Part shown: piece by piece, positions 17,249-36,965 of the stretch
How the letters are laid out: each line of letters begins with the position of its first letter
Position numbering within the stretch: position 1 is the stretch's first letter
Origin: an uncultured delta proteobacterium
GTDB lineage: Bacteria > Myxococcota > Myxococcia > Myxococcales > Myxococcaceae
Assembly (NCBI GenBank): GCA_963776345.1
Contig: CAVZMH010000014.1
Span: 98,973-162,972, forward strand
Length of the DNA: 64,000 bases
Direction: 5' to 3'
Notes under the pieces: model-generated
Told to the model about the DNA's origin: nothing
Seen by the model: the letters and a program-made list of their open reading frames with translations, nothing else
The model's database searches: none
Translations under genes and position numbers: made by a program

Positions 17249-18781
17249 ATGGAACCGACCGCTCCGAAGAAGCGCTGGCCGATGCTGGTGGTGGTGGCGC
17301 TGGTGGCGGCGGTGGCCGCGGCGGGCATCACCGCGCTGCTGGTGAGCATCATCCAGCGGAAGACCGAGGCCAAGCAGACGTTCGTCCGGCTGGTCGAGGT
17401 GGACGAGAACACCGTCGACCCCAAGGTCTGGGGAACGAACTGGCCGCGGGAGTACGACAGCTACTTGAAGACGGTGGACCCGAGCCACACCAACTTCGGC
17501 GGCGGGGACGCGAGTCCGGCCGAGAAGGCGGACCGGTTCCCCTGGCTGACGCGCGTCTTCGCCGGGTACGCCTTCAGCCTGGACTACCGGGACCGGCGCG
17601 GGCACGCGTACATGCTCCTGGACCAGGAGAAGACGCGGCGGGTGACGGAGAAGCCGCAGCCCGGGGCGTGCCTCCACTGCCACGCGAGCATCATCCCGGC
17701 GTACCGGTTCGTCGGGAAGGGCGACGTGATGAAGGGCTTCGAGGAGGTGGGCGCCATGAAGTACCAGGAGGCGCGCGCCTTGAAGGACGCCGCGGGGAAG
17801 CCGCTGGTGGACCACCCGGTGAGCTGCGTGGACTGCCACGACGCGAAGACGATGGCGCTGCGGGTGACGCGGCCGGGGTTCCTGGTGGGGATCAAGGTGC
17901 TGAAGGAGCACCAGGGGGTGAAGGACTACGACGTGAACCGGGACGCGAGCCGGCAGGAGATGCGGAGCTACGTCTGCGGCCAGTGCCACGTCGAGTACTA
18001 CTTCCGTGGGGACCGGAAGACGCTGACCTACCCGTGGAAGAACGGGCTGAAGGCGGACGAGATCGAGGCGTACTACGACGACGGGGCGAACTTCGCGGAC
18101 GGGAAGCCGTACAAGGACTGGGTGCACGCCGAGTCGGGCGCGCCGGTGCTGAAGGCGCAGCATCCGGAGTTCGAGCTGTGGAACCAGGGCATCCACGCGC
18201 GGAGCGGGGTGGCGTGCGCGGACTGCCACATGCCCTACATCCGCGAGGGGGCGCTCAAGGTGAGCGACCACTGGGTGCGGAGCCCGCTGTTGAACGTGAG
18301 CCGGGCGTGCCAGACGTGTCACCCGTATGCGGAGAGCGAGATCCAGGCCCGGGTGGCGCAGATCCAGTTGCGGAACTACGACCTGCTCCAGCGGGCGGGC
18401 GGGGCGATCTCCGAGATGCTGGACGCGCTGAAGGCGGCGAAGGCGGCGGGGGCGACGGATGCGCAGCTGGCCCAGGCGCGGGCGCTGCAGCGGAAGGCCC
18501 AGTGGCGGCTGGACTTCGTGGCCGCGGAGAACAGCATGGGGTTCCACGCCCCGCAGGAGGCCGCGCGGCTCCTGGGCGAGGCGGTGGATTACGGGCGGCA
18601 GGCGCAGATCTCGGTGGAGAAGCTGCGGCTCGGTGAGGCGAAGCCCGCGGCCGCGAAGAGCGGGCCGTGGCGCTCTTCATCATCGCCTTGGGTGAGCTGC
18701 AAGGGCTCGAGGTGCCGGCGAGCTTTAACCGTCCATTCTTCCAGCCGAACATCGCGGAGTTCTGGGCGCGGTGGAACATGA
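17249..18781 (+). CDS. nrfA: Ammonia-forming cytochrome c552 nitrite reductase (CXXCH-type), C-terminus fused to foreign sequence
   Basis: Five hemes [46 protein letters not shown]; homology ends at 18667, then reads 38 codons into the insert. Confidence 0.93.
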
Positions 18782-19083
18782 CTGCGACTGCGGTCTTCAG
18801 GGAGTACTTTTTTTATAATCGATGGGGTCGCCGCAGCTTCAACCCGTACCTGAACGCGGTCATCGTCTTCTTGGCCGTCGGGCTCTGGCACGGATCCAAT
18901 CTCTACTGGATCTCCTTTGGCCTCATTCACGGGATCTACTTCTGCTCGTACCTCTGGTTGCGCCCTCACCTCGGGCGATTCCGAAGTCGGGTCCTGAAGC
19001 CGGCTGGCGCCGCTTTGACCTATGTCTGCGTGTGCATGGCCTGGTATCTTCCTTCGAAGATTGTGGCGCTGCTGCGCCTCTAG
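18667..19083 (+). pseudogene. MBOAT (DltB/AlgI-like) acyltransferase, C-terminal fragment only
   Basis: [39 protein letters not shown]; only 138 aa, 5' part missing at the nrfA junction. Confidence 0.8.
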
Positions 19084-19098
19084 TCGGAGGGTGGACGC

Positions 19099-19341
19099 GT
19101 GGATGGACAGTCGACGCAGGACCGTGTGAGGGCGGCCATCGTGCGGGCACTCGGCCTGACGAGTGCTGCACCACACCTTCCGCTCCGGATGGGTTCGACT
19201 CCTGGATGGGATTCCCTTGGACACATGACGGTCGTGATGGAGCTCGAGCGCGAGTTCGGCGTTCGTGTCCCGGTGACGCGCATCTCGGACTTGGTCGACG
19301 TCGATGCAATCGTCCGTGCAATCGCTGCTGGGATGAAATGA
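19099..19341 (+). CDS. Acyl/aminoacyl carrier protein
   Basis: 80 aa, GWDSLGHM phosphopantetheine site, ELEREFGV. Confidence 0.88.
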   Translation: MDGQSTQDRVRAAIVRALGLTSAAPHLPLRMGSTPGWDSLGHMTVVMELEREFGVRVPVTRISDLVDVDAIVRAIAAGMK

Positions 19342-19348
19342 GGGAGCA

Positions 19349-20526
19349 GTGACGCTCCGGGGTGACGTTGCGGTCGAGGTGCCAGACGAGCTCTCGGAGG
19401 AGTTCGAGAAGAAGCTGGCTTACGTGGCCGAAGGCGTGACCTCTGCGAGTTACGACCCGGTGATGAAGCGGGTCACCTTTGCACTCGCGCACGGGGCGGC
19501 GAAACGGACCGATCAGGTGGCGGCCACGATTCGCGAAATCGCCGCGAAGCTCGTGACCTCGTACCGTCCTGGCCTGAGGCGGCGCGTTGCGAGCAGGGAA
19601 GCATCGAGCCCCGGCGCAGCGGACCCTCACCCGATCCTGAGTGACGAGGGGGAGCTCAAGGAGTTCGGGCGGGGGAGGTTCGGCCTGGGACCGAAGATGA
19701 CGGCTTTGGTCCGAGCTCTCGACGACCTCATCCTCGCGGAGTTCGCCGAGTTCGCGGCGTCAGTCCATCAGTTTCCGTCACTCATCTCGGGAGAGGTTCT
19801 CGACCGGTGCCGCTACCTCCGGAACTTCCCCGCGTCCCTGAGCCTGGTGACGCACCTGCGTGAGGACCTCACGGTCCTGCAGGGCTTCGCGGCGGCAGTG
19901 CGCTGGGACGCCGACCACTTGGAGTTCCCGAAAGAGGCCTTGAGCTCGTTCGACGTCCTCCTCGCGCCGTCGGTATGCTTCCACTGGTACGCCTGGCTCC
20001 AAGGTGAGCGACTCGTCCGCGAGCGGGTCATCACCGCCATCGGGAAATGCTTCAGATACGAGAGCACGTCCCTTTCCGGGCTCGAGAGGCTGTGGGACTT
20101 CACTATGCGTGAGGTCGTCTTCGTTGGCGACCCAGCTGACATCGCGCGTCGCCGGGACGCAGCACTCCGAGCCGGTGAGTCGCTGCTCGAGGCGCTGGAC
20201 CTCTCTTACGAGATCGTGACGGCAACCGACCCCTTCTTCATCGACTCGTATGCGGTCCAGGCCGCGTTTCAGCGCGGCTTCGAGCTGAAGTACGAGTTCC
20301 TTTGTCCCCTTGCTTATCGAGGCAAGCAGCTGGCGATCGGCTCGGTGAACTACCACCAGGACTTCTTCGGCCGCAGTTTCGACATCACGCTGGCCGGGGT
20401 TCCCTGCCATACCGGATGCATCGGCTTCGGGCTGAGCGGCTCGCCCTCGCGGTGCTCGCGCAACACGGGACGGATCCGAAGCACTGGCCCGGTGCGTTGC
20501 AGGAGGCTGTGAGTCGATGGATGTGA
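19349..20526 (+). CDS. Class II aaRS paralog (SerRS-like amino acid:[carrier protein] ligase); frameshift near 20432
   Basis: LAPSVCFHWY, motif 2 CFRYE..RLWDFTMREVVF, ATDPFF, KYE, GSVNYHQDFFG, HTGCIGFG(L)ERL motif 3 restored by one indel. Confidence 0.8.
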
Positions 20527-20993
20527 AGGCAACGGTGACGGTCCGCCAGGCCGTAGCCAGCGAGCTCGAACGGCTTCACGCGCTCTGGACCGCGCTCTAC
20601 GAGCACCAGGCGGCGCACGGCATGCGGATTCGCCTTCCACCGAGCGCCTTTGAGGCTTGGGTCGAGGGTATTCGCCCATTTCTGGGTCGCTTTGCGGTGG
20701 TAGTCGTCGCTCAGTCTGCCGACGCGCTTATCGGTTTCGTGGCGGGCCGGGTTCGAACGCTGCCGCCCTACTTCGGCTCGGAGCAGGTGGGAGCGATCAG
20801 CGAGGTCTTCGTCACCGAGCAACGAAGGTCCGAGCGGATCGGGGAGAAGATGCTCGACGCAGCGGTGGCCTGGTACCGTGGGAACGGGATCCGGCGGATC
20901 GAGCTCCAGGTGGTGGCGAGGAATCCGCACGCGCTGCGGTTCTATGAGCGGTTGGGTTGGCAGCGGGAACTCGTGCAGATGGTCTTGGACTGA
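20517..20993 (+). CDS. GNAT-family N-acetyltransferase
   Basis: ISEVFVTEQRRSERIGEKMLD..IELQV..NPHALRFYERLGW. Confidence 0.88.
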   Translation: MDVKATVTVRQAVASELERLHALWTALYEHQAAHGMRIRLPPSAFEAWVEGIRPFLGRFAVVVVAQSADALIGFVAGRVRTLPPYFGSEQVGAISEVFVTEQRRSERIGEKMLDAAVAWYRGNGIRRIELQVVARNPHALRFYERLGWQRELVQMVLD

Positions 20994-21127
20994 CACCGCG
21001 GAAGGCCCCGCAACGCTCGCCTTTCAAGGCCCCGGAAGAACACGGATGGTGATCGAATCGGGCTGCTGGCTCGGAGGCGACGCGTCCTACTCCCACCAAG
21101 AGCGAGCCCTGGTCGCGCCGCCAGCGA

Positions 21128-21883
21128 GTGAACGACTACGACGTGAACCGGGACGCGAGCCGGCAGGAGATGCGGAGCTACGTCTGCGGTCAGTGCCACG
21201 TCGAGTGCTACTTCCGTGGGGACTGGAAGACGCTGACCTACCCGTGGAAGAACGGGCTGAAGGCGGACGAGATCGAGGCGTACTACGACGACGGCGCGAA
21301 CTTCGCGGACGGGAAGCCGTTCAAGGACTGGGTGCACGCCGAGTCGGGCGCGCCGGTCCTGAAGGCGCAGCATCCGGAGTTCGAGCTGTGGAGCCAGGGC
21401 GTCCACGCGCGGAGCGGGGTGGCGTGCGCGGACTGCCACATGCCCTACGTGCGCGAGGGGGCGCTCAAGGTGAGCGACCACTGGGTGCGGAGCCCGCTCT
21501 TGAACGTGAGCCGGGCGTGCCAGACGTGTCACCCGTATGCGGAGAGCGAGATCCAGGCGCGGGTGGCGCAGATCCAGTTGCGGAACTACGACCTGCTCCA
21601 GCGGGCGGGCGGGGCGATCTCCGAGATGCTGGACGCGCTGAAGGCGGCGAAGGCGGCGGGGGCGACGGATGCGCAGCTGGCCCAGGCGCGGGCACTGCAG
21701 CGGAAGGCCCAGTGGCGGCTGGACTTCGTGGCCGCGGAGAACAGCATGGGGTTCCACGCCCCGCAGGAGGCCGCGCGGCTCCTGGGTGAGGCGGTGGATT
21801 ACGGCCGGCAGGCGCAGATTTCGGTGGAGAAGCTCCGGCTCGGTGACGTGAAGCCCGCCGCGGCAAAGAGCGGGCCGCAGTAG
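21128..21883 (+). pseudogene. nrfA: 5'-truncated second copy of nrfA (last three hemes), carrying the native-looking stop
   Basis: Direct repeat of 17918-18667 (offset 3210) with about 20 substitutions by eye; VEYY changed to VECY; ends KSGPQ-TAG. Confidence 0.9.
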
Positions 21884-21917: not shown

Positions 21918-22727
21918 CTAGAGTCTGAGCTGAAAGTGGCGGTCTCCAACTGGTCCCAGCAAGAGCGAAGCAAGCCACTGGCCAGGGCTCATGTCCCGGA
22001 AGCCGGCTCGGACGAGATCGGACGTGACCGCCGCGGGAGAACTCCGGGCTCTGCCCAACCAAAATTCATCCAACTCAATAATGATGTTCTTCACTATGCC
22101 TCTTTCGAGTGTTTCTTTCGCGCCATGAAGCACTCGTGTTTCAAATCCGTCGACATCGATCTTGAGCAGATCGATTTGATTCAAGCCCCACTCTCTTACG
22201 CAGCTGTCTAGTGTCCGAATGGGGACGGCGATTCCGGCCCCCGTCTCGTCTGCCATCGTGGCTGTTCTGTTGTTGAAGACGTTCTGGTCCGCTTGTGAAA
22301 CTCGCCCGGAACCTTCGAAGGAGCCGAGGCCAAAACCGAACACCGAGACCTGAGATAGAGAATTCGACTCCACAAAACGGCGGAGAAGAGCGAGGTTGGG
22401 AGGCCAAGGCTCGAACGCAAAGACTCTACCTGACACGCCGACCAGCGATGCAGCGAGCAGTGTGAAGTAGCCGATATTGGCTCCCACATCCACGGCAACC
22501 ATGCCCCGTTTCAAGATCGTTCTAAATCGGTAAGTATTTAAAGGTTCATAGCAGCCCATATAGATCATACGGTCTATAAAGTTGGACAAGTCGACTTCTA
22601 TTCGACTGCCAAACAATCGAGCAGGACGGATGCCGTGTCGTGGAGTGACGTGAGTAAATATCCGAACCTTGCCACGGAATGGCAGCGGACGCGCAAGTCC
22701 CAGAAGGAGTTCTTGTACATTCGCCAT
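21918..22727 (-). CDS. FkbM-family methyltransferase
   Basis: VDVGANIGYFT..FAFEP..LLKIDVDGFE; low GC. Confidence 0.9.
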   Translation of the reverse strand: MANVQELLLGLARPLPFRGKVRIFTHVTPRHGIRPARLFGSRIEVDLSNFIDRMIYMGCYEPLNTYRFRTILKRGMVAVDVGANIGYFTLLAASLVGVSGRVFAFEPWPPNLALLRRFVESNSLSQVSVFGFGLGSFEGSGRVSQADQNVFNNRTATMADETGAGIAVPIRTLDSCVREWGLNQIDLLKIDVDGFETRVLHGAKETLERGIVKNIIIELDEFWLGRARSSPAAVTSDLVRAGFRDMSPGQWLASLLLGPVGDRHFQLRL

Positions 22728-22895
22728 ATGCCAACTCTAGCGCGGTAACGGCTGGCAGAGCAGTAAGAGCCTGATCGGGCCGAACTCCTTGGTCGCGCTC
22801 TGTTGGGGTCCGGGTTGAGCGGGCAGGCGAGCGACAACGAGCTTGCTCTTGGCGATGAATCGTCTGTCTTTCGCTCCAGTCGGAGCTTTGAGAGG

Positions 22896-23636
22896 ATGCG
22901 CGAGTGGAGCAACGTCTTCATCCGGTCGTTCCGCGCAGCCGGTCGGCGTGCGCTCTTCCGGGCCCTCCCGCCAGGAAGCCGTTTGCCGTTCGAGTACTGG
23001 CTTGCCCGGGTCCGGGGTTCGATCGAGCCCGAACTGCGTTACCTCCATCTGTTCTGTCCACATCAAGGCTGCGCCGTTGATGTAGGTGCGCACCGCGGCC
23101 ACTACGCCTACCGCCTCTCGAAGCTTGCCCGGAGTGTTGTGGCCTTTGAGATAAACCCAGAACTTCTGGTTGACCTCGAAGCGTACAACCCGGGGAATTT
23201 GCGAATCATCCCAGTCGGCCTCTCTTCTACTACGGCTGAATTGCCGCTGTTCATACCAATCCGTGATGACAGACCTCTGACCGGCTGGGCAAGTCTCGAT
23301 CCGGCCAACCTCCCTGGCGCGTCGAGCTATCTCACTAGACTCTCGCGCGTAACTACCCTGGACAGCTTCGACCTCGATCATGTCACGTTCGTCAAGATCG
23401 ATGTCGAAGGACATGAGTTGGAGGTGCTTCGAGGAGCTGAAAAGACCCTCGCAAAGTGGCGACCGATGCTTCTGGTCGAAGTTAAGTCCCACAACTCAGC
23501 TGTTGTCGAGGAGTTCCTGACGAACAGGGGATATTTGAGGCGAAACCTTCAAGACTTGATCGGTGTCCCCGGTTCCCCGGAAAACGCCATCTTCGTCGCG
23601 GCCGGAATGGTCAACACTCACAATGAACCAGAGTAG
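22896..23636 (+). CDS. FkbM-family methyltransferase
   Basis: VDVGAHRGHY..VAFEINP..FVKIDVEGHELEVLRGA. Confidence 0.88.
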   Translation: MREWSNVFIRSFRAAGRRALFRALPPGSRLPFEYWLARVRGSIEPELRYLHLFCPHQGCAVDVGAHRGHYAYRLSKLARSVVAFEINPELLVDLEAYNPGNLRIIPVGLSSTTAELPLFIPIRDDRPLTGWASLDPANLPGASSYLTRLSRVTTLDSFDLDHVTFVKIDVEGHELEVLRGAEKTLAKWRPMLLVEVKSHNSAVVEEFLTNRGYLRRNLQDLIGVPGSPENAIFVAAGMVNTHNEPE

Positions 23637-23642
23637 CTCACT

Positions 23643-23800
23643 GGCGAGGTGCACCCCGGCCTCGAGGAACCGCCGCCAGGCGTAGGCGCCCGCGAGCCTT
23701 GCGCGTCCGAGTCGCTTCTCGGCCCACGGCATGTCGCTGGTCGCGGCCGGAGCGACGCCAGCCCGGGCGTACGCCTCGAGGACGTCGTGGTTCGCGGCGT
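23643..23800 (-). pseudogene. Internally deleted fragment duplicating the amidohydrolase gene
   Basis: [52 protein letters not shown] matches 15384-15486 joined to 15581-15637. Confidence 0.85.
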
Positions 23801-23920
23801 GACCATGGCCCGTAGGGCTCTCGAGCCCGCGAAGGAGATGGCCGACCGGTTGGGACCACGGGCGTTGAGGCACGCAGCCGAGCGAGACACCGCGAGACGC
23901 AGGGGCGGAACAAGCATGGA

Positions 23921-25432
23921 ATGGCGGCTGTGCTCAATTGGTTCGTTCCAGTACGATCGGCCACGGTGGCTCGCAGTCGACCTCCGCGCATCCGACTTGC
24001 ACCCGTGCCCAACGGGGGGTGGCTGCTGCTGGTCGTGAGCGCAGGGGGTTCTTATCCGCTGCAGCTCGGTCCTGGGACGACCCGGTTACCGTCAGGAGCC
24101 GAGATCCTCGTCGAGGGCGACCGGCTTCAGCTTCGTGCAGGGAGCATCGGGGCAACGGTAAACGACGTCGAGGTACAAGCTCCGACGTCCCTGCACGTCG
24201 GTGACTTGCTCAGCCAGGCCGAGCTTCAGTTCCTCGTACTGCCGGCGCCTGCCAGCGCCCCGCCGTGGGAGCCTGCGCTTCTTGAACACGGGGTCTGGCA
24301 GCGTAGGCTCGAGGAAGAAGTGGAAGCAGCAGACGAGCCCTTTGCAGTCCTGCTAGGGCGTTCGGGGGCCTTTGCACCGGCATTCCTGTCCTCGGCGCTC
24401 GCCGACTTCTCCCCGGTGCGAGGGGTTCGTCAGATCGCGGGGGTCTTCGGTCGGAATGCGCTCGAGGTCCTTGTCATCGGTGACCTCGAGGGCGTCGACC
24501 GTTTTCGGCAGTTTGTCTCCGAGCGTGCCGCCAGGGAGGAGGAGACGGTACGCTGGGGCGCGGCGTGGTTCCCCAGGCACGGGGCGACCGCAGAGGAACT
24601 CTGGTCCGTCGCGGTGGACCGACTTCTCGGTCTGCAGGCGCTGGAGCCGCCGGAGCTGGTCTGGAGCGACCCGTGCATGACCCGGCTCCGTGCGTTTGCC
24701 GATCGCTGGTCCCGGCGGCGTGCCCTTGCCCTGGTCGGGGCGGAGGGAGTCGGCCGCGAGAGCCTCGTGCGACTCATCCGCGCCTCGGCCGCACCTGGAG
24801 CTCCGTTCATCGTGCATCGAGGATCTCGGTTTGAGCCAGCGAGGTGGAGGGAGGACGTGGCCCGAGCGGCCGGCGGCTCCCTTCACGTGCGGCGTCCCGA
24901 AGTGCTTCCCGAGGGAGAGCGGCTCGCCTTTTGGAGCGCGACGAGTTTCCGGCCTTCCGGCGGCGTCGCGGTCGGCGTGCGGGCGTCGCAACTACCCGAG
25001 GACCGAATTGTCATCCCAGGGCTGGCGGACCGTCCAGCCGACGTCGCTCCTATTTCAGAGTTGGTACTCCATGCCGTCGACGCGCAGCTCGGACGCCGAA
25101 GATCGAGCCTGCGCTCAGAGACGCGCTCGCTACTCCAGGGAATCCGAGCGCGGGAAAATGTACGCACCCTCAGGAATATGGTCATCAGAGCAGCCCTGAC
25201 CGCGACAGGCACAGAGGTTCGTCCCGAGCACCTCGACCTGTCTTCGGAAATTACAGAGTTTTCCGGGGTACGCGCAAAGCTGCGCGAAACCGAGCGACGA
25301 GAAATCGAAGCAGCGCTCCACGGAAGCGGATGGAATGTGACGGAGGCAGCGCGCAGAATGAAACTACCGCGCAGGACCCTCGTGTACCGGATGGCGCGAC
25401 TGGGCGTGCGGCGCCCAGGAGGCACCATCTGA
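23921..25432 (+). CDS. Fis-HTH regulator with FHA-like N-terminus and degenerate sigma54-activator AAA+ domain
   Basis: GATVNDVEV..LHVGDLL (FHA-like); GAEGVGRE degenerate Walker A; IPGLADRPAD; ENVRTLRN; GWNVTEAARRMKLPRRTLVYRMARLG. Confidence 0.75.
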   Translation: MAAVLNWFVPVRSATVARSRPPRIRLAPVPNGGWLLLVVSAGGSYPLQLGPGTTRLPSGAEILVEGDRLQLRAGSIGATVNDVEVQAPTSLHVGDLLSQAELQFLVLPAPASAPPWEPALLEHGVWQRRLEEEVEAADEPFAVLLGRSGAFAPAFLSSALADFSPVRGVRQIAGVFGRNALEVLVIGDLEGVDRFRQFVSERAAREEETVRWGAAWFPRHGATAEELWSVAVDRLLGLQALEPPELVWSDPCMTRLRAFADRWSRRRALALVGAEGVGRESLVRLIRASAAPGAPFIVHRGSRFEPARWREDVARAAGGSLHVRRPEVLPEGERLAFWSATSFRPSGGVAVGVRASQLPEDRIVIPGLADRPADVAPISELVLHAVDAQLGRRRSSLRSETRSLLQGIRARENVRTLRNMVIRAALTATGTEVRPEHLDLSSEITEFSGVRAKLRETERREIEAALHGSGWNVTEAARRMKLPRRTLVYRMARLGVRRPGGTI

Positions 25433-25906
25433 TCGCCACCGGGTCGGAAGGCCACGACTGTGCGCAAAGAAGCGTGGCTCTCCGATGTGCCGAGTCTCCG
25501 ATCGCCGAACCCCACGGCGGAGGAAAGTGACCTGACCCGCGTCCAACAACGCGCGGATCTGATCTAGGGTTGCGGCGTGGATGCCCCTGTTGTCCGAGAG
25601 CGCCCGGAAATGACTGAAAAGCCCTTGCGCGGCATCACTCGCGAGCGCGATTGGACATACATGGTCGGAGCGTCCCGGGCACCGGCCCTTCACAGTGAGT
25701 CTACGTCTCCGGGCATCTATTGAACGAATGCGGAACATAGGTTGGGCAGTTCGACTTACGCCTCGTAGATGGCTCGTACGAGGACGCGTCCTCTCGTGAG
25801 ACCCGACTCGTGGTGGGTGCGCCCTGGCTCTAGCCGGGCGGATACCGCGTGGTGCTGGCGGATTACGAATGGCGCAGCTGATCCAGCCCGGTGGGGCGGC
25901 TAGCCT

Positions 25907-27013
25907 GTGAAGCGGTTTCGTTTCTTCTCATCGCGAGACTGGCTTCCGGCAGGGACGCCTCACGTTCCTTACTTGTCGCCGTTCTGGGGAGCACCGGCTA
26001 GAAGACCCACGCGATCCACAGCGGGCGCGCACGACCGGTGGCTCGCAGTCGGGCGAGAGGTAGCCGAGGAATCGGCGCTGGGGGTTGCGGAAGCGGCGAT
26101 GCTCCCGTTCGACTGGACGGAAGCAACGAAGTCGAGGCACCACCGCGAGGTTGCCATGCGGGCGCTATCGGAGAGCCGAAAAGCTGGAAAGCCGCTGTTG
26201 GTCTTCTTCTGGAACGACGATTCCCAGGACCTCGGTCTGGACGGAGCGATCATTCTCAGGACCTCCGCGAACCGGGGACCAAAGTACGGCGTCGTCGAGT
26301 TCGCATGCCCGAGCTGGCAAGAAGACCCCAGACGTTGGGTGACGGAGCGGGGTTCCGTTGAGGAGAAGTCCCACATGCCGCCATCCATATCCTTCTGCGG
26401 TTACGTGGGGCGGCCGTCAGGATGGCGAGCCACGGCAAAGGAACTGCTCCGGACTTCGCTCGGTCGCTTTCATCCCATCGTTCCCCAACTTCGTCAAACG
26501 CCCCTCGAGCTTCGCCGCGCCGCCCTCGCGGTTCTCGGCCGCGACCGCCGGTTACGAACCCAGTTTATCACTCGCCAGTCCTTCTATGGAGGGGCCCTTC
26601 GCCGACGAGCGAAACTGGGACTATGAACAGAAGGCGCTGGTAAGAGCCGAATACGTAGAAAACATATGTTCCGCAGATTACGTACTGTGCGTCCGTGGCA
26701 CAGGAAATTACTCGATGCGCTATTTTGATACTTTCGCACTCGGGCGGGTGCCTGTGGTCTGATCGACACTGGGGGGGGCTTCCCTTACGACTTTCGAAGT
26801 GAACTTGGCACTCGCGTGGACCGTGGATCTCGGTAGACGAGCTTGCTCGTCTTCCGGAGGTCATTGCTCGAGTTCCATCATCGCCACACAGCAGAAACGC
26901 TCCAGACGCTAAAGGATGAGAATCGCGGGCTTTGGGAACATTGGCTGTCTTCGGAGGGCTTCTTCCGTGAACTGCCTCGCCACCTCGAGCGCGCGAGAGG
27001 TCAGCGCGGATGA
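25907..27013 (+). pseudogene. Exostosin (GT47)-like glycosyltransferase, frameshifted
   Basis: ISFCGYVG..; then in a shifted frame EYVENICSADYVLCVRGTGNYSMRYFDTFALGRVPV. Confidence 0.7.
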
Positions 27014-28199
27014 GCGGGCTCAAACTTCGCATCGCAATCGACTTTACCGGATTCGAAGAGTTGAGTGTCGCCGTAGGACAGTTCCGGTATCTCTTGAGTT
27101 TGGTACATGGGCTCGCTCCGCGACTCTCTTCCGGGGAAGGATGGCTCTTGAGTCCGGCGTCCAATCTACCGGATGAACTGCAACCGTACTGCGCGCCGAA
27201 GGGACCGTTCCGATACCGTAAGGTTGCACGCCCGTGGCTTCGCGAGCCGCTTAGTCTCACGCACATCTCGCGCTATGCCATTGCCCAGGAACTCCGGCTT
27301 GACGTGCTGCACGCAGTTCACGCCTTCCTGCCAATCATCGCCCCCTGTGCGATGGTGTTGACGATTCATGATCTCATGCCAGAGATCTTTCCGGAGTACG
27401 ATACTTGGGCACGGGAGCCGAGCGTACCGGTATTATCGTTACCTTGCCCGCGAGCGGGCTGATGCCTTGGTGTGCGTGTCAGAAACGACCGCAGAGGACG
27501 TCCGGTCGCGATGGAGGGTTGCTGAAGAAAGAATCTTTACCGCGCCACTGGCTATTGCTGCTTTCCCTCGGGAGAATATCGCCCTTCCTCCAAGTGTTCC
27601 GACAGACCGGTCGCTGGATCTTGTCGCCCTACAATCTCGAACCGCGAAAGAATCTGCGTCGGTTGCTCGAGGCGTTTGCGCAGGTGCCGGATCCCCGGGA
27701 TGAAATGCGACTCGTGCTGTTCGGCCGTGCAGCGCATACTCCAGAGCGGGAGCGCGAGTTCGACGACCTCCTAGCGCGCTTGTCTATTGGACGAAAAGTG
27801 ATTCGGACTGGATTCGTTTCGGATGCGGCGCTCGCAACGATGTATCGCCGGTGCACAGTGTTTGTATTCCCCTCGCTCTACGAGGGCTTTGGTCTGCCGG
27901 TTCTAGAGGCAATGGCGAATGGCGCCTGCGTCGTCGTCGGGGATCGGAGCGCGATGAAGGAAGTCGTCGATCAAGCAGGCGTGTTGATGGACGTCGACTC
28001 TCCTTCGGCCATGGCGAGGGCGATCATCACAACCCTCGCGGATGAGCGCGGGCGCCAGAGGCTCTCCGAGAAGGCGCGCGCCCGGAGTACGGCGTTCACC
28101 CTCGAGCGCTTGGCTGACCAGACAATCGCCGCCTACCGCTTTGCCTCGCGCCAATTCGTGAGTCGTATGGGAAGTCGCCTTGATAAGGCGCCGAAGTAG
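27010..28199 (+). CDS. GT4 glycosyltransferase, frameshifted
   Basis: VLTIHDL; NLEPRKNL; FVFPSLYEGFGLPVLEAMANG; split over three frames. Confidence 0.85.
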
Positions 28200-28215
28200 A
28201 AAGAAGAGCGGCGCC

Positions 28216-28295
28216 GACCGAGGCAGGTTCCTGCCCCCGTGGCGCCGGAACCTGTCCGGCCCCGACGGCCCGGCCCCCCCCATCCCTGGGCCGAG
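28216..28295 (+). mobile_element. IS91/ISCR-like remnant (left part, interrupted by IS3; continues 29325-29364)
   Basis: Matches 33694-33772 and resumes GAGCTCC(C)TCAAGCGGAC after the IS3. Confidence 0.8.
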
Positions 28296-28313
28296 TGTAG
28301 TGCTCCCCTGAGA

Positions 28314-28928
28314 TCAAGCCACACGTGAGACTTCCGCTCGGTACTCCCTCGGGCTCCTGTAGCCGAGTGCTTGATGAGGCCTGCCGTCGTTGTACCAGTC
28401 GATCCAGCGCGCGATGGTAGCCCGCAAGGTCCCGAAGCGGGCGATGCACGCCTCCTCGATGGCTCGCTCCGCCTCCTTGGCGCGCCCACGAAGCGCAAAC
28501 TCGTAGCCGATGACTTCCCGGTCGTGGCAGTCAATCACCGCGGCCAGATGCGCCCAGCCGTCGCCGCCGCAGGGCACGTGCGTCATGTCCATCGCCCAGC
28601 GCTGGTTGCTCTGCTCAGCCTGGCTCCGCTTCCCATGCACGCGTGGCCGGGGCGTCCAGGTGCGCTGATGGACAAACCAACGCTTCTGCTCCAGCACTCG
28701 GTAAACGGCCTTCCGGTTGATGCGGACGCCTTGGCGAAAGCGCAGCATCGCCCAGATGCGCCGGTAGCCGAACGTCGGGTGCTCGTGGATGAGCGAGCCG
28801 ATTCGGGCAACCAGGAGCTCGTCGAGCACGGGCGCGGGCGCACGCACTAGCCGACGCGGTCGTGACCGCGCCACGTGGAGGATGCGGCACGCCTGACGTT
28901 CGGACAGGTCCGGCATCGCCGCCCTCAC
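28314..28928 (-). pseudogene. IS3 OrfB integrase, internally deleted
   Basis: HPTFGYRRI, WAMDMTHV, VIDCHDRE, then jumps to WIDWYN..RPHQALGYRSP; second D and E region missing. Confidence 0.85.
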
Positions 28929-29251
28929 TCGTCCGACGTCTTCGGCACAAAAGGGCGGTCCTTGGTCGCCTCCCGCAGAACGTCGTTCTCGAGCACCAGC
29001 TCGCCGACCTTCTGCTTCAGCTTCCGGATCTGCTCGTCCTTCAGCGCCTCGTCGTCCTTGGGCCGCGCTCGAAGCGCGTTCTCAGCCGCGAGGAGGAATC
29101 GGTCGCGCCAGTCCTCGATTTCAGCCACCGTCAGCCCGTGCTTGCGAGCGGCCTCCTGCACCGAGGTCTCGCCCTTCAGAATGCTCGTCACGAGCGCGAC
29201 GCGTCGCTTCGCCGTCCAGCGCTGCAGGTCCTCCGGAATCTCGCCTGCCAT
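28925..29251 (-). CDS. IS3 OrfA (DUF1153-like HTH)
   Basis: QRWTAKRRVALV..SVQEAARKHGLT..IRKLKQKVGELVLENDVL. Confidence 0.88.
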   Translation of the reverse strand: MAGEIPEDLQRWTAKRRVALVTSILKGETSVQEAARKHGLTVAEIEDWRDRFLLAAENALRARPKDDEALKDEQIRKLKQKVGELVLENDVLREATKDRPFVPKTSDE

Positions 29252-29364
29252 GCCTTCCCCACCTCTCCGCGGCCAACTCCACCGCGTCTTAAGGGTGGCT
29301 TCAACTCAGAGGGGAGCGGGATACGAGCTCCCTCAAGCGGACTTCCTAGACCGACGTCCTCGCG

Positions 29365-29934
29365 TGTGATGGACCGGCCTAAGAGATCGGTCCTGGTTCG
29401 GCGAAGGGGGTCGCAGCTGGTTCGGCCAAACTGATCGCCCCTGGTTCGGCCAACGAGATCGCCGGGTGCACCGCGTCGACGAGGTTTGCTCGGCAAGGTG
29501 ATCGGGGCTGGTTCGGCCAAACAGAGCGCCTGAACACCCGTGGAGTGTCCCTGCCCGACGAGACCGCCGGGGCGGGGACCTGCCCGTGCAGCCTCGTGCC
29601 TTCCCGCGAGGAGGCACGGATGCAGAGGAGGGTCGAGATGGATCGACTGCAGGAGCTGGTGCGGCTGCATCGGATGGGGAGTGGCGCCCGGGAAGTGGCG
29701 CGGCTGCTGGCCATGAGCCCGAACACCGAGCAGATGTACCGGCTGGCGCTGCAGCGGGCCGGGCTGCTCCTCGGTCCCGCCGCCGACCTCCCGCCGCTCG
29801 AGCTACTCAAGGCCTCCGTCGCGGAGCAGCTGCCCCGGAAACCGGCCCCGCAGCAGACGTCGCCACTGGAAGGCTGGCTGGAGAAGATTGAGCAGCTCTG
29901 GCACCGAGGCGTGGGGCAGAGGGGCATCTACGAC
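29365..29934 (+). mobile_element. istA: IS21-family left end with truncated istA
   Basis: TG-starting end with multiple GATCG-N4-TGGTTCGGCCAA repeats (29385-29520); MDRLQELVRLHRMGSGAREVARLLAMSPNT HTH from 29620; cut at 29935. Confidence 0.75.
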
Positions 29935-30452
29935 GGTCAAGTCGCAAATTTTGTGTAATTTGATTGAGGGGTTCCTCGGCGACTGAATCAAGCGGCCTTT
30001 GTCGCCTCCGTGGTGAGCAGTGACACGTCGGGGTACTGGGGATCGTCCCAGATGGACGTCGCGGCGAGGGTAACGGCGGTGACGAGGCGCAGAGCGCTCG
30101 TGCGATCCGGGAAAGCCCCGACGGCGCGGAGCCGCCGCTTCACCTCGCCGTGAAGGCGCTCGAGACCGTTGGTGGTGCGGATCCGGCGCCGGTGCTGCCG
30201 GGGAAAGTCGTAGAAGCTCCTGGCTGCGAGGAAGCCCTCATCGAGGCACGCCATGGCTTCGGGCACCTGGGCGCCGAGGCCGGACCGGAGGGCCTCCAGG
30301 CGCTTCCTGGCCTCGGCGCGGCTGGGGGCCTCGAAGAGCTGGGAGACTTCCTTCCCCGGTCGTCCTCGGAGCCGCCAGGGCGCCTTGGCGAGGATGTTCC
30401 GGGTGAGGTGCACGGTGCAGCGCTCGAGCTTCACCTCGGGGAGCACCAGGCG
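29935..30452 (-). mobile_element. IS256-family transposase 3' fragment and terminal IR
   Basis: ERCTVHLTRN, IRTTNGLERLHGEVKRR, GAFPDRTSALRL; end GGTCAAGTCGCAAATTTTGTGTAA. Confidence 0.82.
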
Positions 30453-30466
30453 GACCGCCGCCCCCA

Positions 30467-30600
30467 CCCGGACTGCTCTACCCTCGGCAGAGCTGAGCAC
30501 CCACGCCCCACGCCGAGCGCCTCCTGGTCCCGTCGCCGGCCCGACGACCCAGTCCGTACCCGGCTTCCCCCGCGAAGACCCAGGTTTTTCTTCCTTGGAC
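30467..30600 (+). mobile_element. IS91/ISCR-like 3' (ori-like) end remnant
   Basis: GGACTGCTCTACCCTCGGCAG..GAGCACCCACGCC..CCTCCTGGTCCCGTCGCC..GGTTTTTCTTCCTTGGAC, matching 33999-34135. Confidence 0.75.
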
Positions 30601-30834
30601 CTCGTGCTCGTCGACGATGGCTCGACCGACCTTGATTGGTGTGCGGTCAGGACACCCCGTTCCTCGAGTCTCAGGCCAGACTCAACCGCTTCACGATCTT
30701 GCTGGAGTGGGAATCGAGTGATGGTGGCTTCAAGGGAAGGCCGCGACCACACCCGAATGTTACGCGACTAGTTGAAACGGTGCCGTGGTACATTCCTGTG
30801 TCCACCGAATCTACCTTATGCAGGGGGCGCTCAG

Positions 30835-31636
30835 ATGTTGCGGCAAGCAAAGAAGCTGGTCAATAAGGGGCTTAAGAACTTTGGATTGGAAGTGGCCAGA
30901 GCTGGAACGACGGGACACAAGGATTCCATGTTGATTCGGGACACGCTAGAGACCGTGGCTCTGTATCGAGAAACTGTCCTGGCTGACTTACCTGAACTGG
31001 ACGAGCAACAAATTGCTCTACTGATAGTCCGTTGTGGTACCAGCATCGGCGAGGCTCTGTATATTCTTAACGCGGTACAGAAGACCAGGGCCATCCCTGG
31101 CGACGTCTGTGAGTTCGGTGTCGCCGAGGGTGCCACATCGGTGCAAATCGCCTACATGATTCGAGAAGGAACCAAACACCTTTATCTCCTGGATTCCTTT
31201 GAAGGCCTATCCAAGCCAACTGAGAAGGACAAATTGATCGATGACATTTTTGATTTGGGCTCGATGGCGGCCTACGCCGGCACCATGGCAACGCCTATGC
31301 AAATACCTGCGGCGAAAATCACACTCAATCGGCTTTCCTCCGGCTCGAGTGCATTTCATTAAGCAAATGATTGAAGGAGAGCTAAGAGACCTCGACAAAC
31401 TTCCGAGTACGGTTTCGTTCGCCTACTTTGATATGGATCTATATGAGCCGACGTTATTGTCGCTCGAGTGGTTCCACGCAGTTTCGCGGTCCGGCGCAAT
31501 CGCGATTGTGGACGACTATGGGTTCTTGTCATCCGGCGTTGAATCGGCGGTCAACGAGTTTTTGGTGGGCAAGGAATACGAAGTTAGCCTGCCGGTCAAG
31601 TCTGCCGGACACTTTTGTCAAATCACAAAGCGATGA
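30835..31636 (+). CDS. TylF/MycF (macrocin O-methyltransferase-like), frameshifted near 31300
   Basis: PGDVCEFGVAEG, LDSFEGL, DMDLYEPT, IVDDYG; low GC. Confidence 0.85.
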
Positions 31637-31654
31637 ACGGGTTTGTCGGTTAGC

Positions 31655-31840
31655 TCTGCTTCGTCGAGGGCTTCTCGCTCCACGCCGACACCTGGCTTCA
31701 CGAGAATGACGTCGTCGGCCTCGAGCGGCTGTGCAACTACGGCGCCCGGGGGGCCGCTGTCGCTCGAGTGGCTGTAGGCATTGCCCAACGGATGACTCGC
31801 CTACCGGATGAAGCGGGCCTCCCCCACCGGAGACTTGGAC
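31655..31840 (+). mobile_element. IS91-family Y2 transposase internal fragment (decayed)
   Basis: Own translation: GFSLHADTWLHENDVVGLERLCNYGARGPLSLE..LAYRMKRASPTG; ends at CTTGGAC. Confidence 0.8.
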
Positions 31841-32547
31841 GAACCCTGGCGACGGTGGCGTGCTCACCAGCGACGTGCCAAGTGTGATTCAGATTGGATA
31901 CCTTAGGTTCAACGACATCGTCTTCCAGGCTTGGAACACCGCGTGCGACCCGAACTACTCTGAACCGCTGTTTCAGGCAGTGACTCGCACCGAGACGACG
32001 TTCACTCTCGAAGCGGGATTGCGGTGCTCCACGGGAGGAGAAGGGTGCGCGGGGGCGGTCGTAATCTGGGAGGGCTCGGGAGCCAGGAACGGTGACGCCC
32101 TGAATGTTCACCTCAGTGGTTCCATCGATTTCCCTTACCAGGGTGGGTTCTGTGGGGATGCGGTGAGTGGGGGGGTACGTGGCCGTATTCGTACACGTTC
32201 TCCGGTACCCGCACGGGTCCCTGACAGCGTGAGCGAGCTGAGTCACTGGGACTGCTGGGGCTGGTCCGGCATGAAGACGGTGAGCCGGCCGGAGCCGAAC
32301 AGCACGCCGGAGGCCGCGATGGACCTCCTGCTGGACAAGGTTCGCCTCGTCTTCGGCGAGCAGGACTGGAGCACCTGGGAGTGGAACGCCCGGGAGTACG
32401 GCACGGCCGCACCGCGCGTGATTCCGTTCTTCCGGAGCGAGGGGCGTTGGACGCGGCTGAAGGCGCCACGCCACGCCACGCCACGCTCACGTTCATCCGT
32501 GAGACAATCCACCAGGCCCGGGCTCACCGGACCAGGGGGAAGCACCC

Positions 32548-33537
32548 ATGGAAAAAGCTCGCGCAGTAATCTGTGTCCTAGCCTTCATCTGCGCTGCAGT
32601 GCCGGGAACCGCCCATGCGACGCCCGACCAACCCACAATCATCCAGGCAGACGCCGACACCTCTACGCAGCCCGGCGTGCTCTTCATCAACGGCTCGGGC
32701 TTCGGCGCTCAGACGCCGACTGTGATCCTCGGGAGCCTGCAGCTCACGGTCATCTCGCACTCGCCCACCGACATCACCGCGGCGCTTCCGAGCAACACCG
32801 CGTCTGCGAGCTATTTACTTTCGGTGACCAATGCCTCCCCACCAAATCGTACTGACACCTTCGCAGTCGCGATTGGCGCCTCAGGTCCCCCGGGGCCACA
32901 AGGGCCCGCGGGTCCGGCCGGGGCTCAAGGCCCGCAAGGTCCAGCAGGCCCCACTGGCGCGATGGGGCCGCCCGGTCCGCAGGGTCCAATCGGATTCACG
33001 GGACCGGCCGGAGCGATCGGCCCACAAGGACCGATCGGTCTACCTGGAATCGACGGGAAGGATGGATTGCCTGGTCCGGCTGGCCCCGCGGGGCCGATTG
33101 GTCCCCAAGGGCCGACTGGGGCAACCGGACCCCAAGGCCCTCAAGGGCCGGCCGGGTTAGCAACTGCGGACGCGCTGTCTCTTGACAGATGGGCTTCAAT
33201 TGAGGCCTTCCTATCTACGTCAGATTACACTACAATCATGGCATTCGACGTCCCTGCCGGAACTTATCTAGTTCTTGGGCAAGCGATTATTACAAGTTAT
33301 GCTTTTACCAACAACCAAACTCCGACCGCTGTGGAGTGCCACATCAACACTATTGACAGTCTCTTAGCATACGGCCAAAGTTATTTTTCTTTTTATACAA
33401 CCATCAATATCTCTGGTGTCGCAGTGCTCCCCTTGCCTGCCACCATATCTTTGGAATGCCGTTCGTCATCACTCAATATGACCGGGAAATATCCGCAATT
33501 AACGGTGATTCCTTTGGCGTCGGTAACGTTCCATTAG
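32548..33537 (+). CDS. Secreted collagen-like protein (signal peptide, IPT-like domain, 32 Gly-X-Y triplets, C-terminal beta domain)
   Basis: AHA signal site; [18 protein letters not shown]...GLA; AT-rich 3' third. Confidence 0.85.
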
Positions 33538-33549
33538 CTCCGCGGGATA

Positions 33550-34135
33550 CTGCCTCCAGTGGCCTTCCTCCGCCGGGTGGCCGCGCTCGTCCCACACCCA
33601 GGGCCAACCCGCGTCCGCTACTTCGAGGTCTTCGTCCCCAACGCCCGGCTGCGTCCCCGCGTCGTGCCGGCGCATCCTCCCCTTGCGGCGCCCACCGAGG
33701 CAGCTTCCTGCCCCGTGGCGCCGGAGCCTGTCCGGCCCCCGACGGCCCCGCCACCCCATCCCCTGGGCCGAGCTCCTCAAGCGGACGTTCCAGACCGACG
33801 TCCTCGCCTGCCCTCGCTGCGGGGGCACCCGCCGCGTCGTGGCCGTCGTCCTCCGTTCCTCGACGGCCCAGGCCATCCTCGAGCACGTGCGGCTCCCCTC
33901 CAGGCCGCTTCCCCTCGCCCCGGCCACCTCCCCGCCCCAGCTCGGCCTCTGGTGAGTGCCGTCCGACGTTCGAGACTCGCCCCGGCCTGACCACGGCCCC
34001 GGGACTGCTCTACCCTCGGCAGCGGTGAGCACCCACGCCGAGCGCCTCCTGGTCCCGTCGCCCTCCCCCTCGCTGGCTGAAGCGAGACGCCCCACCTGGT
34101 CCGCGGCCCGAAAGCCCGGTTTGTTCTTCTTGGAC
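33550..34135 (+). mobile_element. IS91/ISCR-like remnant: Y2 transposase C-terminus plus 3' end (longest copy)
   Basis: PPVAFLRRVAALVP..RVRYF..NARLRPRVVP; WAELLKRTFQTDVLACPRCGGTRRVVAVV..AILEHV; ends GGTTTGTTCTTCTTGGAC. Confidence 0.85.
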
Positions 34136-34265
34136 TCCCGCTTGTATCCCTCGGCGCCTCCGACCAGGTGCCGATAACACCCAGCGATCACAATACGCAT
34201 AAGCTGTCCAAGACTTAAGTCCCCGTGTATAGGGCAGTCCCTCTCCTTCTGCATCGACGATTCTC

Positions 34266-35060
34266 ATGGACTTCGAACAAACTCTCGCTCCTTCCGATTC
34301 ATCTCCTGCATTCGAGGCGTGGCAGGCGCTGTCTTTTTATACCTCCGGGGCGCGCTCCGTGCTCGACGTAGGCTGCAACGTAGGGGATCTTCTAGAGGCG
34401 TTGCGCCATCTCGGGGCCTCACGCCTCTACGGGATCGACATCAATCCAGCGGCCACCGAAGCGGCGAAGGTTCGCTTCAGGGATCAGCCTCAGGTCGAGA
34501 TCCGCCAGGGTTCGGCAGATGAGCTATATCTCCAGGACGGTTCTGTAGACATCTCCTTCTGCCTCGAGGTGCTGGAGCATATACCTAGAGAAATGCGACC
34601 GAAGGTAATCCAAGAGGTCCACCGCGTCACAAAGCCGGGTGGACTCTTCGTCCTGAGCGTGCCCCATAACGGCGCGTTTTCCTTTCTCGACCCTGCCAAC
34701 GCACGCCTGCGCTTCCCCTGGGCCTTCGGCCACGCGTCCCGACTGATGGGCGGGCGAGGTCGAGAGCACGGCTACGAGGGTCAAAAGCATGGCCTTATTT
34801 GGCACCACCACTTTGAGCGCAAGGAACTGATCGGGCTTGTCGGTCCTTGGTTCGAGATTCGGGAGGTCCGATGGCGCGGCGCAGCAATAACACCACTCTG
34901 TCACTGGCTGCAGTGGCCGTTCTACAGAAAGGCCGCTCCAGACAACTTGATCATGCGAGCATTACGCCGAGTGGAAAGGATGGACATGTCCGTTCAGTGG
35001 GGTGAGCGACTTGCTTACGACGTCTGTATGGTCGGTGTGCGCCGAGAGGTTGGTCGCTGA
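34266..35060 (+). CDS. Class I SAM-dependent methyltransferase
   Basis: VLDVGCNVG..GIDIN..CLEVLEHI..KPGGLFVLSVP. Confidence 0.9.
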   Translation: MDFEQTLAPSDSSPAFEAWQALSFYTSGARSVLDVGCNVGDLLEALRHLGASRLYGIDINPAATEAAKVRFRDQPQVEIRQGSADELYLQDGSVDISFCLEVLEHIPREMRPKVIQEVHRVTKPGGLFVLSVPHNGAFSFLDPANARLRFPWAFGHASRLMGGRGREHGYEGQKHGLIWHHHFERKELIGLVGPWFEIREVRWRGAAITPLCHWLQWPFYRKAAPDNLIMRALRRVERMDMSVQWGERLAYDVCMVGVRREVGR

Positions 35061-35122
35061 TTGTGCGCGGGAACCAATGCATCACCCGTTCAAGGGAGGC
35101 CTCCCGGTCATACAGAGGCGCG

Positions 35123-35484
35123 CCCTTGGGCCGAGCTCCTCAAGCGGACCTTCCAGACCGACATCCTCGCCTGCCCGCCGCGTCGTGGCCGCCGTGCTCC
35201 GCTCCTCGACGGCCCAGGCCATCCTTGACCACGTGCGGCTCCCCTCCAGACCGCTTCCCCTTTGCCCCGGCCACCTCCCCGCCCCAGCTCGGCCTTTGGT
35301 GAGCGCCATCCGACGTTCGAGACTCGCCCCGGCCTGACCGCGGCGCCGGGACTGCTCTGCTCTCGGCAGCGGTGAGCAACCCACGCCGGGCGTCTCCTGG
35401 TCCCGCCGCCGTCCCCCTCCCTGGCTGAAGCGACAACCCCCATCTGGTCCGCGCCTCGAAAACCCGGGTTGTTCTTCCTTGGAC
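35123..35484 (+). mobile_element. IS91/ISCR-like 3' remnant
   Basis: TGGGCCGAGCTCCTCAAGCGGACC... to GGGTTGTTCTTCCTTGGAC, homologous to 33763-34135. Confidence 0.85.
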
Positions 35485-35760
35485 TTGGAGGGGCGCCACG
35501 GCCGGCGCGGCGACGACGAAAGGGCGATCGACGTCCGAACCATGCGTCGATGCTTGCGCGCGCCTGCCCGGCCCGCATGCCGCGTTCGTGCGACGCCCGC
35601 CAGCCGCAACGACTGCATCAATCATTCGCCATGTGCGCCTTCCTCTCGCCTCTTCCCGGGTCTTCATCACCGCCTGGTCATCGCCAGCAAGAAGCCCGCG
35701 ATGGGATCATCGAACGGCTTAGCGAAGAGTGAGCGCAGGAAGGCTCGCCGATTACTTGCG

Positions 35761-36534: not shown

Positions 36535-36865
36535 GGGGGGAGCATAGCCTCCGCCCCAGGCTTTACGATCATCGCGCGCGATCCCACTCTGGTGCCGTTG
36601 CCCGACGGCGTGGGTTGCTACGCCATTGGCGCCAGCCGGCGACGCAATAGCGGTGATGCCCTCGACGCGTCTTCTCGGCGACGGCCTCGTTCCGGTGACC
36701 AGCGCGCTGCGCATCCACTCCGAGCCGCGTTTCAGGCTCGCTTTTCCGCCCGCGCATCAGCGCGTGTCTTTCCGGGCGGACCAATTCGACCCTCCGAGAC
36801 TCGCTGGCGGTCTATGAGGAGTTCGCCCAGAGGCTGGCGTAGGGTCCGACTCTGCAGCGCCGGCG

Positions 36866-36965
36866 GCGAGAGACAGACCTCGTCCTCCCTCCAGTGGCCT
36901 TTCTCCGCCGGTGGCCGCGCTCGTCCAGCCCCCCAGGGCCAACCCGCGTCCGCTACACTTCGGGG
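36866..36965 (+). mobile_element. IS91-like transposase fragment fused to a glycosyltransferase tail
   Basis: CTCCAGTGGCCTT..GTGGCCGCGCTCGTCC..CAGGGCCAACCCGCGTCCGCTAC, homologous to 33555-33625. Confidence 0.75.

Follow-up and report, generated by a model that had tools for sequence, protein, structure and literature searches.

A damaged copy of a conserved gene module that may load, cap and transfer an amino acid to an envelope glycan

In a stretch of DNA from an uncultured member of the Myxococcaceae (contig CAVZMH010000014.1, 64,000 nucleotides, here called the window), four adjacent genes encode the C-terminal part of an enzyme of the MBOAT type (an O-acyltransferase bound to the membrane), an acyl carrier protein (ACP), a paralog of seryl-tRNA synthetase (SerRS) and a GNAT-family N-acetyltransferase. 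From sequence comparison, we give about even chances to the reading that this cassette is a damaged copy of a conserved module in which aminoacyl-ACP would be converted to N-acetyl- or N-formyl-aminoacyl-ACP, and the capped amino acid then transferred by the MBOAT to an envelope glycan. Many uncultured bacteria of soils and wetlands carry the cassette unbroken; the copy in the window, as assembled, cannot work. Its genes are as follows.

18667..19083, forward strand: C-terminal fragment (138 codons of ~385 aa) of a DltB-fold MBOAT, with the catalytic His in GLWHG
19099..19341, forward strand: dedicated carrier protein (ACP) of 80 aa, PF00550
19349..20526, forward strand: SerRS paralog of the amino acid:carrier-protein ligase type, ~392 aa, matching PRK07080 and Bll0957; the assembled open reading frame (ORF) stops at 20512
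20517..20993, forward strand: GNAT N-acetyltransferase of a cassette-specific family, PF00583 (E 5e-15)

An earlier note on this DNA had described four co-oriented ORFs of lower GC content at this place, and they are present as described, with a GC content of 0.59 to 0.65 against 0.70 in the adjoining nrfA gene and 0.70 to 0.73 across the contigs of the host. Its assignments also hold for the ACP, which scores over the PF00550 cut-off and carries WDSL, for the GNAT, which PF00583 recognizes, and for the ORF with GLWHG, which the DltB profile TIGR04091 matches only at positions 236-375 of 380 (E 7e-18), as expected of an MBOAT C terminus. Among the class II aminoacyl-tRNA synthetase (aaRS) motifs that it listed, the Cys/Glu/Cys triad aligns to that of Bll0957, a SerRS paralog of B. 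japonicum, whereas GFGLER is out of frame and reads GFGLS as assembled.

The ligase in the window matches PRK07080 (E 2e-42) and, in the PDB, Bll0957 (E 1e-27); its class II core resembles that of methanogen SerRS and has motifs 2 and 3, the latter frameshifted in the window and intact in relatives. In a predicted model, ligase residues 71-394 find their best structural match in methanogen SerRS (Z 27.6). Across an alignment of 43 ligases, the zinc ligands C210 and E255 are invariant (43/43) and C357 is kept in at least 90%. We rejected a tRNA-charging SerRS: the protein is below the cut-offs for such enzymes, most of the N-terminal domain appears to be missing, and a canonical serS lies on another contig of the host (C20), as a canonical SerRS does in 5/5 other cassette genomes tested. 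The earlier assignment to the amino acid:carrier-protein ligases, and not to housekeeping SerRS, is supported. Neither the window ligase (145 bits) nor its intact homolog P0002 (169 bits) reaches the equivalog cut-off of NF005479 (357 bits), and we therefore treat the cassette ligases as a distinct subfamily. Two places after the third zinc ligand, the close-clade members scored have Gly in 68/87 and Ala in 19/87; a Gly here presumably allows Ala or Ser.

Ahead of the ligase core lies an N-terminal alpha/beta domain of about 70 aa, which Bll0957 does not have. The structural match begins at about residue 165 (162-169) of methanogen SerRS and at residue 18 of Bll0957, and the cassette ligase, at 396 aa, is shorter than methanogen-type SerRS (~520 aa) while retaining the ~70-aa domain. 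Ligase residues 1-90 (window 19349-19620) are conserved. The domain has no match in PDB or Pfam; a weak atlas match to the tRNA-binding domain of methanogen SerRS (PF18490, score 0.77) was not confirmed by a hidden Markov model (HMM) search. These comparisons give no more than a lead to an origin of the domain from methanogen SerRS.

The cassette genes travel together in relatives. We found 389 relatives of the ligase among the candidates scored, the best 120 of them at 49-75% identity, and a scan with their alignment yielded the 127 loci surveyed here, 47 in genomes and 80 of 114 in metagenomes. Among the 42 genome loci with both flanks, 21 hold the ACP family, accompanied by an MBOAT in 18, a GNAT in 17, a formyltransferase in 3 and neither of the latter two in 1; the other 21 hold no MBOAT of this family (0/21). 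The 24 metagenome loci with both flanks, 3 of which duplicate L010, have ACP and MBOAT in 23 and GNAT in 19. The profiles were trained on the genome loci, so the genome counts are partly circular and the metagenome counts are not. Conversely, every MBOAT locus has the ACP (57/57), and the MBOAT is of full length (~385 aa) in 18/21 genome and 23/23 metagenome ACP loci with good flanks, lying upstream, downstream or inverted. The cognate carrier gene adjoins the ligase in the window and in the loci of relatives, and its family shares the motif MGxxPxWDS[ML]GH, with the Ser invariant in an alignment of 36 sequences. In a quick 90-row tree, which left out duplicates, two frameshifted loci and metagenome loci with neither MBOAT nor formyltransferase, the MBOAT-linked ligases form one clade (53 rows, SH-aLRT 95). 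The gene company that the earlier note proposed to look for is seen in dozens of loci, where the ligase is joined by this ACP, a DltB-fold MBOAT of full length and a GNAT; both outcomes that it had named as damaging and that could be computed, a grouping with true SerRS and a lack of MBOAT and ACP neighbors, came out the other way.

The cassette occurs in soil bacteria with a diderm envelope, by record title members of the Acidobacteriota, Binatota and Verrucomicrobiota as well as deltaproteobacterial metagenome-assembled genomes (MAGs). Intact copies include L001, L003, L014 and L018, with GNAT, and L011 and L054, with formyltransferase. Searching back from the MBOAT, we found no further member among 300 genomes of the host phylum, 400 of the phylum of L001 and 300 of that of L014, with 4-6 candidates scored per genome, and none in plasmids. 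By a rough check, 46/86 MBOAT matches on contigs of at least 3 kb lie on a contig of exactly the same length as that of a listed ligase match or locus. A more distant ligase is present in 21 of 150 family relatives, whereas the close type is present in none of them. Because the module is rare and patchy over phyla, it is probably carried along with envelope islands among soil bacteria.

The gene slot of the GNAT suggests what happens to the loaded amino acid. Across the 127 loci, 73 have the GNAT, 5 a formyltransferase (PF00551) and none both. Four of the formyltransferase loci (L009, L011, L054 and L084) sit on four separate branches of the MBOAT clade, among GNAT carriers; L084 is only 1.9 kb long, and a GNAT may lie farther off there. 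The fifth, L045, is outside the MBOAT clade. L011 and L013 are 90% identical either side of an exact exchange of formyltransferase for GNAT, and in L054 the formyltransferase is followed by what is left of a GNAT, its 3' end. Two unrelated cytoplasmic enzymes that share N-acylation chemistry occupy one slot, and the simplest reading is therefore that the amine is capped before export. The swap, which is new here, points to N-capping of the amino acid and strengthens the earlier suggestion that the cassette perhaps N-acetylates its product.

The damage to the window copy lies at two places, and the first involves the gene and the repeat that flank it.

17249..18667, forward strand: nrfA, cytochrome c552 nitrite reductase (PF02335, E 1e-125), complete bar its stop codon
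17911..18667, forward strand: direct repeat copy 1, the 3' half of nrfA; 757 bp, 96.7% identical to copy 2
21121..21883, forward strand: direct repeat copy 2, a headless nrfA 3' half with its native stop; the repeat itself spans 21121-21877
21918..64000, no strand assigned: glycan island adjoining the cassette, by family matches to its proteins

The two nrfA repeats (17911-18667 and 21121-21877), which the earlier note did not mention, bracket the cassette. At the junction the stop codon of nrfA is gone, and by translation its frame runs 38 more codons, to 18781. Since the stop codon of nrfA is lost at the very point where the MBOAT fragment starts, the GTG at 18667 marks the junction and is not a true start. 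The fragment lacks about the first 245 residues and keeps family profile positions 246-385; the earlier note said that an intact version would have to be found elsewhere, and relatives have MBOATs of full length. The second break is a one-base frameshift near 20433 in motif 3 of the ligase, which leaves GFGLS in frame and ERLALAVL in another frame. Each break is intact in a close public sequence, in both cases a single short contig of low depth: one, 95% identical to the MBOAT fragment, diverges at 18667 and runs upstream in frame with PWGFYL, an MBOAT family motif at the position expected just upstream of the fragment, and another, 98% identical, has one extra base at 20433-20434 that restores GFGLERL. 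The missing part of the MBOAT was not found elsewhere in the host assembly (98% complete, 0.01% contamination). We rejected the only other MBOAT in the genome, an AlgI-type gene that adjoins an AlgX-type SGNH gene at C19:62573-65268 (G000), as the rest of it.

A related MAG, L040 (nrfA 92% identical), has the cassette in intact order. Its MBOAT is of full length and frameshifted, and is followed by ACP, ligase and GNAT; its sequence matches copy 2 of the nrfA repeat through the stop, and its cassette sits between a sigma-54 regulator and a Wzc block that matches window 46377-52601. Since the cassette there lies directly ahead of the syntenic Wzc block, it belongs to the glycan island that runs from 21.9 kb on in the window. 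This island contains FkbM and TylF methyltransferases, many GT4-family glycosyltransferases, epimerases, Wzc, a GDP-mannose dehydratase, a GT family 4 initiator and insertion sequence (IS) elements, with IS fragments at 28314-30752. At 23643-23809, just before the sigma-54 regulator, lies a remnant 85-88% identical to the amidohydrolase gene at 15048-16662, and L040 has the whole gene at that place. Between 27010 and 57588, genes for GT4s, TylF and Wzc are among those split across frames, from decay or a consensus of low accuracy.

These observations bear on whether the rearrangement is real. It is possible, in our view on the lower side of even, that truncation, repeat and frameshift are assembly errors (a two-strain chimera plus a consensus indel) and that the living organism carries an intact cassette; this reading is about local architecture and nothing else. 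Between the nrfA copies there are 25 differences, 13 of them synonymous, as between two alleles; both breaks are intact in close relatives, neighboring island genes are also frame-split, and the cassette of L040 itself has many frameshifts. A chimera sits less well with a 98% complete, almost uncontaminated assembly that holds the missing MBOAT part nowhere, with non-conservative changes in nrfA copy 2 (Y to C, R to W), with the long unbroken host genes left of the junction, and with the second gene remnant at 23643-23809, as expected of rearrangement in vivo. A codon-model scan for frameshifts lacked the sensitivity, within the low-GC island, to tell decay from assembly error. Of the sequencing runs looked at, none contains more than 12% of the sequence words, and no RNA run with them is listed.

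In intact copies the MBOAT is about 385 aa long and its predicted model is confident (pLDDT 92). Both the profile search (E 3e-23) and the structure comparison (TM 0.69) place DltB first, and PORCN, HHAT and LPCAT3 come next among structures; the MBOAT scores 58 bits against a TIGR04091 cut-off of 375. Its catalytic His is invariant (28/28), and Tyr299 and Tyr363 are invariant too.

We propose that these proteins act in the following order. By homology to Bll0957, the ligase would almost certainly form an aminoacyl-AMP in an ATP- and zinc-dependent reaction and pass the aminoacyl group to the phosphopantetheine of the carrier; the amino acid is probably a small one, such as Ser, Ala or Gly. 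The GNAT or the formyltransferase would then probably cap the alpha-amine in the cytoplasm, presumably while the amino acid is on the carrier. It is quite likely that the MBOAT takes the loaded carrier as its donor, by way of the conserved His. The acceptor would, on balance, be a hydroxyl of a capsular polysaccharide or exopolysaccharide, and a lipid-linked repeat unit in the membrane is probable because no shuttle or SGNH relay was found (see below). An amino-acid ester of this kind would be neutral, whereas the D-Ala that Dlt attaches is cationic. More tentatively, we suggest a shuttle-free pathway in full: N-acetyl- or N-formyl-seryl-ACP or -alanyl-ACP may serve a new MBOAT subfamily that esterifies a lipid-linked polysaccharide directly, with no DltX or SGNH relay.

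Several results weigh against this scheme, among them the duplicates and the partial circularity in the counts above. According to the available part of PMC12148441, those bacterial MBOATs that have been characterized as polymer acylators depend on an FxYxxF tyrosine shuttle together with an SGNH enzyme. FxYxxF stands at the C terminus of none of 58 cassette MBOATs (0/58), and a DltX-type frame ending in F.Y..F is absent from the 127 loci and the window, by a strict pattern that degenerate forms or distant genes could escape. DltD (PF04914) is found in 0/6 cassette genomes, by a search whose controls, B. subtilis and L. lactis, were positive. Across 60 loci there is no recurring fifth gene and no recurring SGNH cluster. 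L012, L020 and L045 have ligase and ACP with no family MBOAT in the DNA fetched, L010 and L068 are without a GNAT or a formyltransferase in the vicinity, and L009, L011, L013 and L016 have full 10-kb flanks free of glycan genes. The glycan loci vary between cases and thus point to no acceptor sugar shared by them all. The Dlt analogy of the earlier note therefore stands in part: the carrier, the DltB-fold MBOAT and the non-homologous loader are there (no AMP-binding, DltA-like neighbor recurs in the 60 loci, the loader having a class II aaRS fold instead), but no FxYxxF shuttle and no DltD or SGNH partner were found. With neither a DltX shuttle nor DltD found, this is half a Dlt pathway only. 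Single loci do have SGNH-type genes in reach, one of AlgX type in L012 and, at a distance of about 9 kb, GDSL genes in L011.

The choice of a glycan as acceptor, which the earlier note saw in the polysaccharide of the neighboring locus, draws on context. Glycosyltransferase, Wzx/Wzy/Wzc or nucleotide-sugar genes lie in 15/23 genome loci of the clade; of the others, 4 lack such genes over full flanks and 4 are short. The neighbors that recur are GT4s, Wzc, epimerases and methyltransferases. The glycan-locus context is thus upheld, but the four fully flanked loci depart from it. The main rival is a lipid acceptor: after the same first three steps the MBOAT would directly acylate a membrane lipid (a glycolipid, lysolipid, hopanoid or lipid A) to an N-acyl-aminoacyl lipid, and the glycan context would reflect where the island integrates. 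The missing shuttle and SGNH partner would be expected of such an enzyme, PORCN, HHAT and LPCAT3 act directly on membrane-bound acceptors, and two of the four loci without glycan genes lie near lnt. We nevertheless consider it unlikely, since 15/23 clade loci are in glycan clusters and 0/85 sister-clade ORFs scanned (of 115 listed) encode a glycosyltransferase, an imperfect control with shorter flanks, and since no lipid-synthesis gene recurs among the neighbors.

Some GNAT folds take carrier- or tRNA-bound acyl donors, and the GNAT could accordingly be the aminoacyl transferase, with aminoacyl-ACP amidating a nucleotide-linked amino sugar in the cytoplasm and the MBOAT doing an unrelated O-acetylation. 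L045 fits such a route, as its ligase, ACP and formyltransferase (9971-13084) lie in a nucleotide-sugar cluster, heptose- or ulosonate-like, with no MBOAT within the 10-kb flanks. This is improbable, however: a formyltransferase, incapable of amino acid transfer, replaces the GNAT in four branches, most GNAT members keep the RxxGxG acetyl-CoA loop, and the MBOAT remains linked where the GNAT is missing (L010, L068). Least probable of all is that the MBOAT gives the capped amino acid to a protein that is secreted or lies at the surface, such as an exosortase/PEP-CTERM target, in the manner of animal HHAT and PORCN, which rank just behind DltB; exosortase EpsH and DUF3485 adjoin L003, L004 and L006, but exosortase is usual in such exopolysaccharide loci, is found in 3/23 loci only, and no substrate protein recurs.

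Other loci show what else the ligase family can pair with. In L087 (2416-5404), behind a close-clade ligase come a 276-aa ORF, an ACP that differs from that of the cassette, and the first part of an apparent DltB/AlgI-type MBOAT of another family, which looks like a second, independent ligase-MBOAT pairing. In L126 (595-4119), ACP and ligase precede two genes whose products look by eye like an acetyltransferase of the AAC(3) type and a protein resembling peptidases. Three related acidobacterial loci encode a protein of about 525 aa upstream of the MBOAT, with no Pfam or NCBIfam match (L001:6838-8415, L003:6786-8369, L022:3632-5224). The wider family includes ACP-ligase and ligase-ACP fusions (P0344, P0333), an N-terminal domain of 350 aa joined to a ligase (P0324) and a ligase with a GNAT-like C-terminal half (P0339), all with domain names assigned by eye.

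In six sister-clade loci (L027, L028, L029, L032, L035 and L041; around 8500-12300), the ligase lies beside 3-hydroxyacyl-CoA and acyl-CoA dehydrogenases, an ACP and polyketide synthase/nonribosomal peptide synthetase (PKS/NRPS) genes; L031, L039, L044 and L046 share this layout in part. The six are likely cassettes for an aminomalonyl-ACP extender, in which a SerRS paralog replaces the adenylation enzyme ZmaJ. In zwittermicin synthesis, the same dehydrogenase/ACP layout depends on ZmaJ loading L-serine, as stated in the available text of PMC6395733, and serine is therefore a good first guess for the ligase substrate. A DUF1839/acyl-CoA-dehydrogenase context of secondary metabolism was considered for the window copy and rejected; the PKS/NRPS context is that of the sister clade.

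The role of amino acid:carrier-protein ligases is called unknown in the part of a review available to us (PMC9437257). If the proposed pathway is true, these ligases gain a defined end product and a biological job, a bacterial MBOAT that acylates polymers stands outside the acyl-tyrosine shuttle rule, and lineages change the cap, acetyl or formyl, by exchanging one gene. The window copy itself is of no use for experiments. As a system of four proteins for which a clear product is predicted, the module could be reconstituted in vitro. It also offers a test of whether acylation of an envelope polymer by a bacterial MBOAT is possible in the absence of both the tyrosine shuttle and the SGNH enzyme, which the available part of PMC12148441 presents as thought to be general. 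We found no description of the module in the open-access literature searched, where a mention in Mocibob 2010, Schultz 2023 or supplements is possible.

Among known systems, methanogen-type SerRS (TIGR00415, PRK00960; 2CIM, 3W3S) is the top structural match of the ligase core, yet the cassette ligase is about 120 residues shorter, scores 94-141 against 490-611 bits and appears to lack most of the tRNA-binding domain. Closer is Bll0957 (PDB 3MEY, 4H2S; NF005479/PRK07080), which shares the methanogen-SerRS-type core, the Cys/Glu/Cys triad, an adjacent carrier and a separate SerRS in the genome. The cassette ligase is about 28% identical to it, scores 145-169 against 357 bits, has the extra N-terminal domain of ~70 aa and is partnered by an MBOAT and a GNAT or formyltransferase; Bll0957 has Ala two places after the third zinc ligand.

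PatA/PatB and AlgI/AlgJ/AlgX likewise place MBOAT genes in Gram-negative polysaccharide loci. Such MBOAT-SGNH systems of O-acetylation use an acyl-CoA donor and no carrier, and their MBOATs end in FxYxxF on two extra helices (PMC12148441, available part). The cassette MBOAT, at ~385 aa, is without FxYxxF and has no conserved SGNH neighbor. Envelope aminoacylation by way of a dedicated carrier protein is known in Gram-negative bacteria from the AlmEFG system, which glycylates lipid A in Vibrio cholerae with an adenylation enzyme of the ANL superfamily and a non-MBOAT acyltransferase, and with no N-cap.

With Dlt (DltA, DltC, DltB, DltX and DltD), the cassette shares a carrier-bound amino-acid thioester, here a predicted one, and a DltB-fold MBOAT of DltB size with the catalytic His. 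It differs in having a class II aaRS fold in place of the ANL enzyme DltA, an added N-capping enzyme, Asn where DltB has its first His (289), and diderm soil bacteria as hosts, with no DltX motif and no DltD found. Taken together, the module would work like the first half of Dlt, which loads, carries and passes to an MBOAT, with a non-homologous loader and a cap added, and is neither Dlt nor a PatA/AlgI system.

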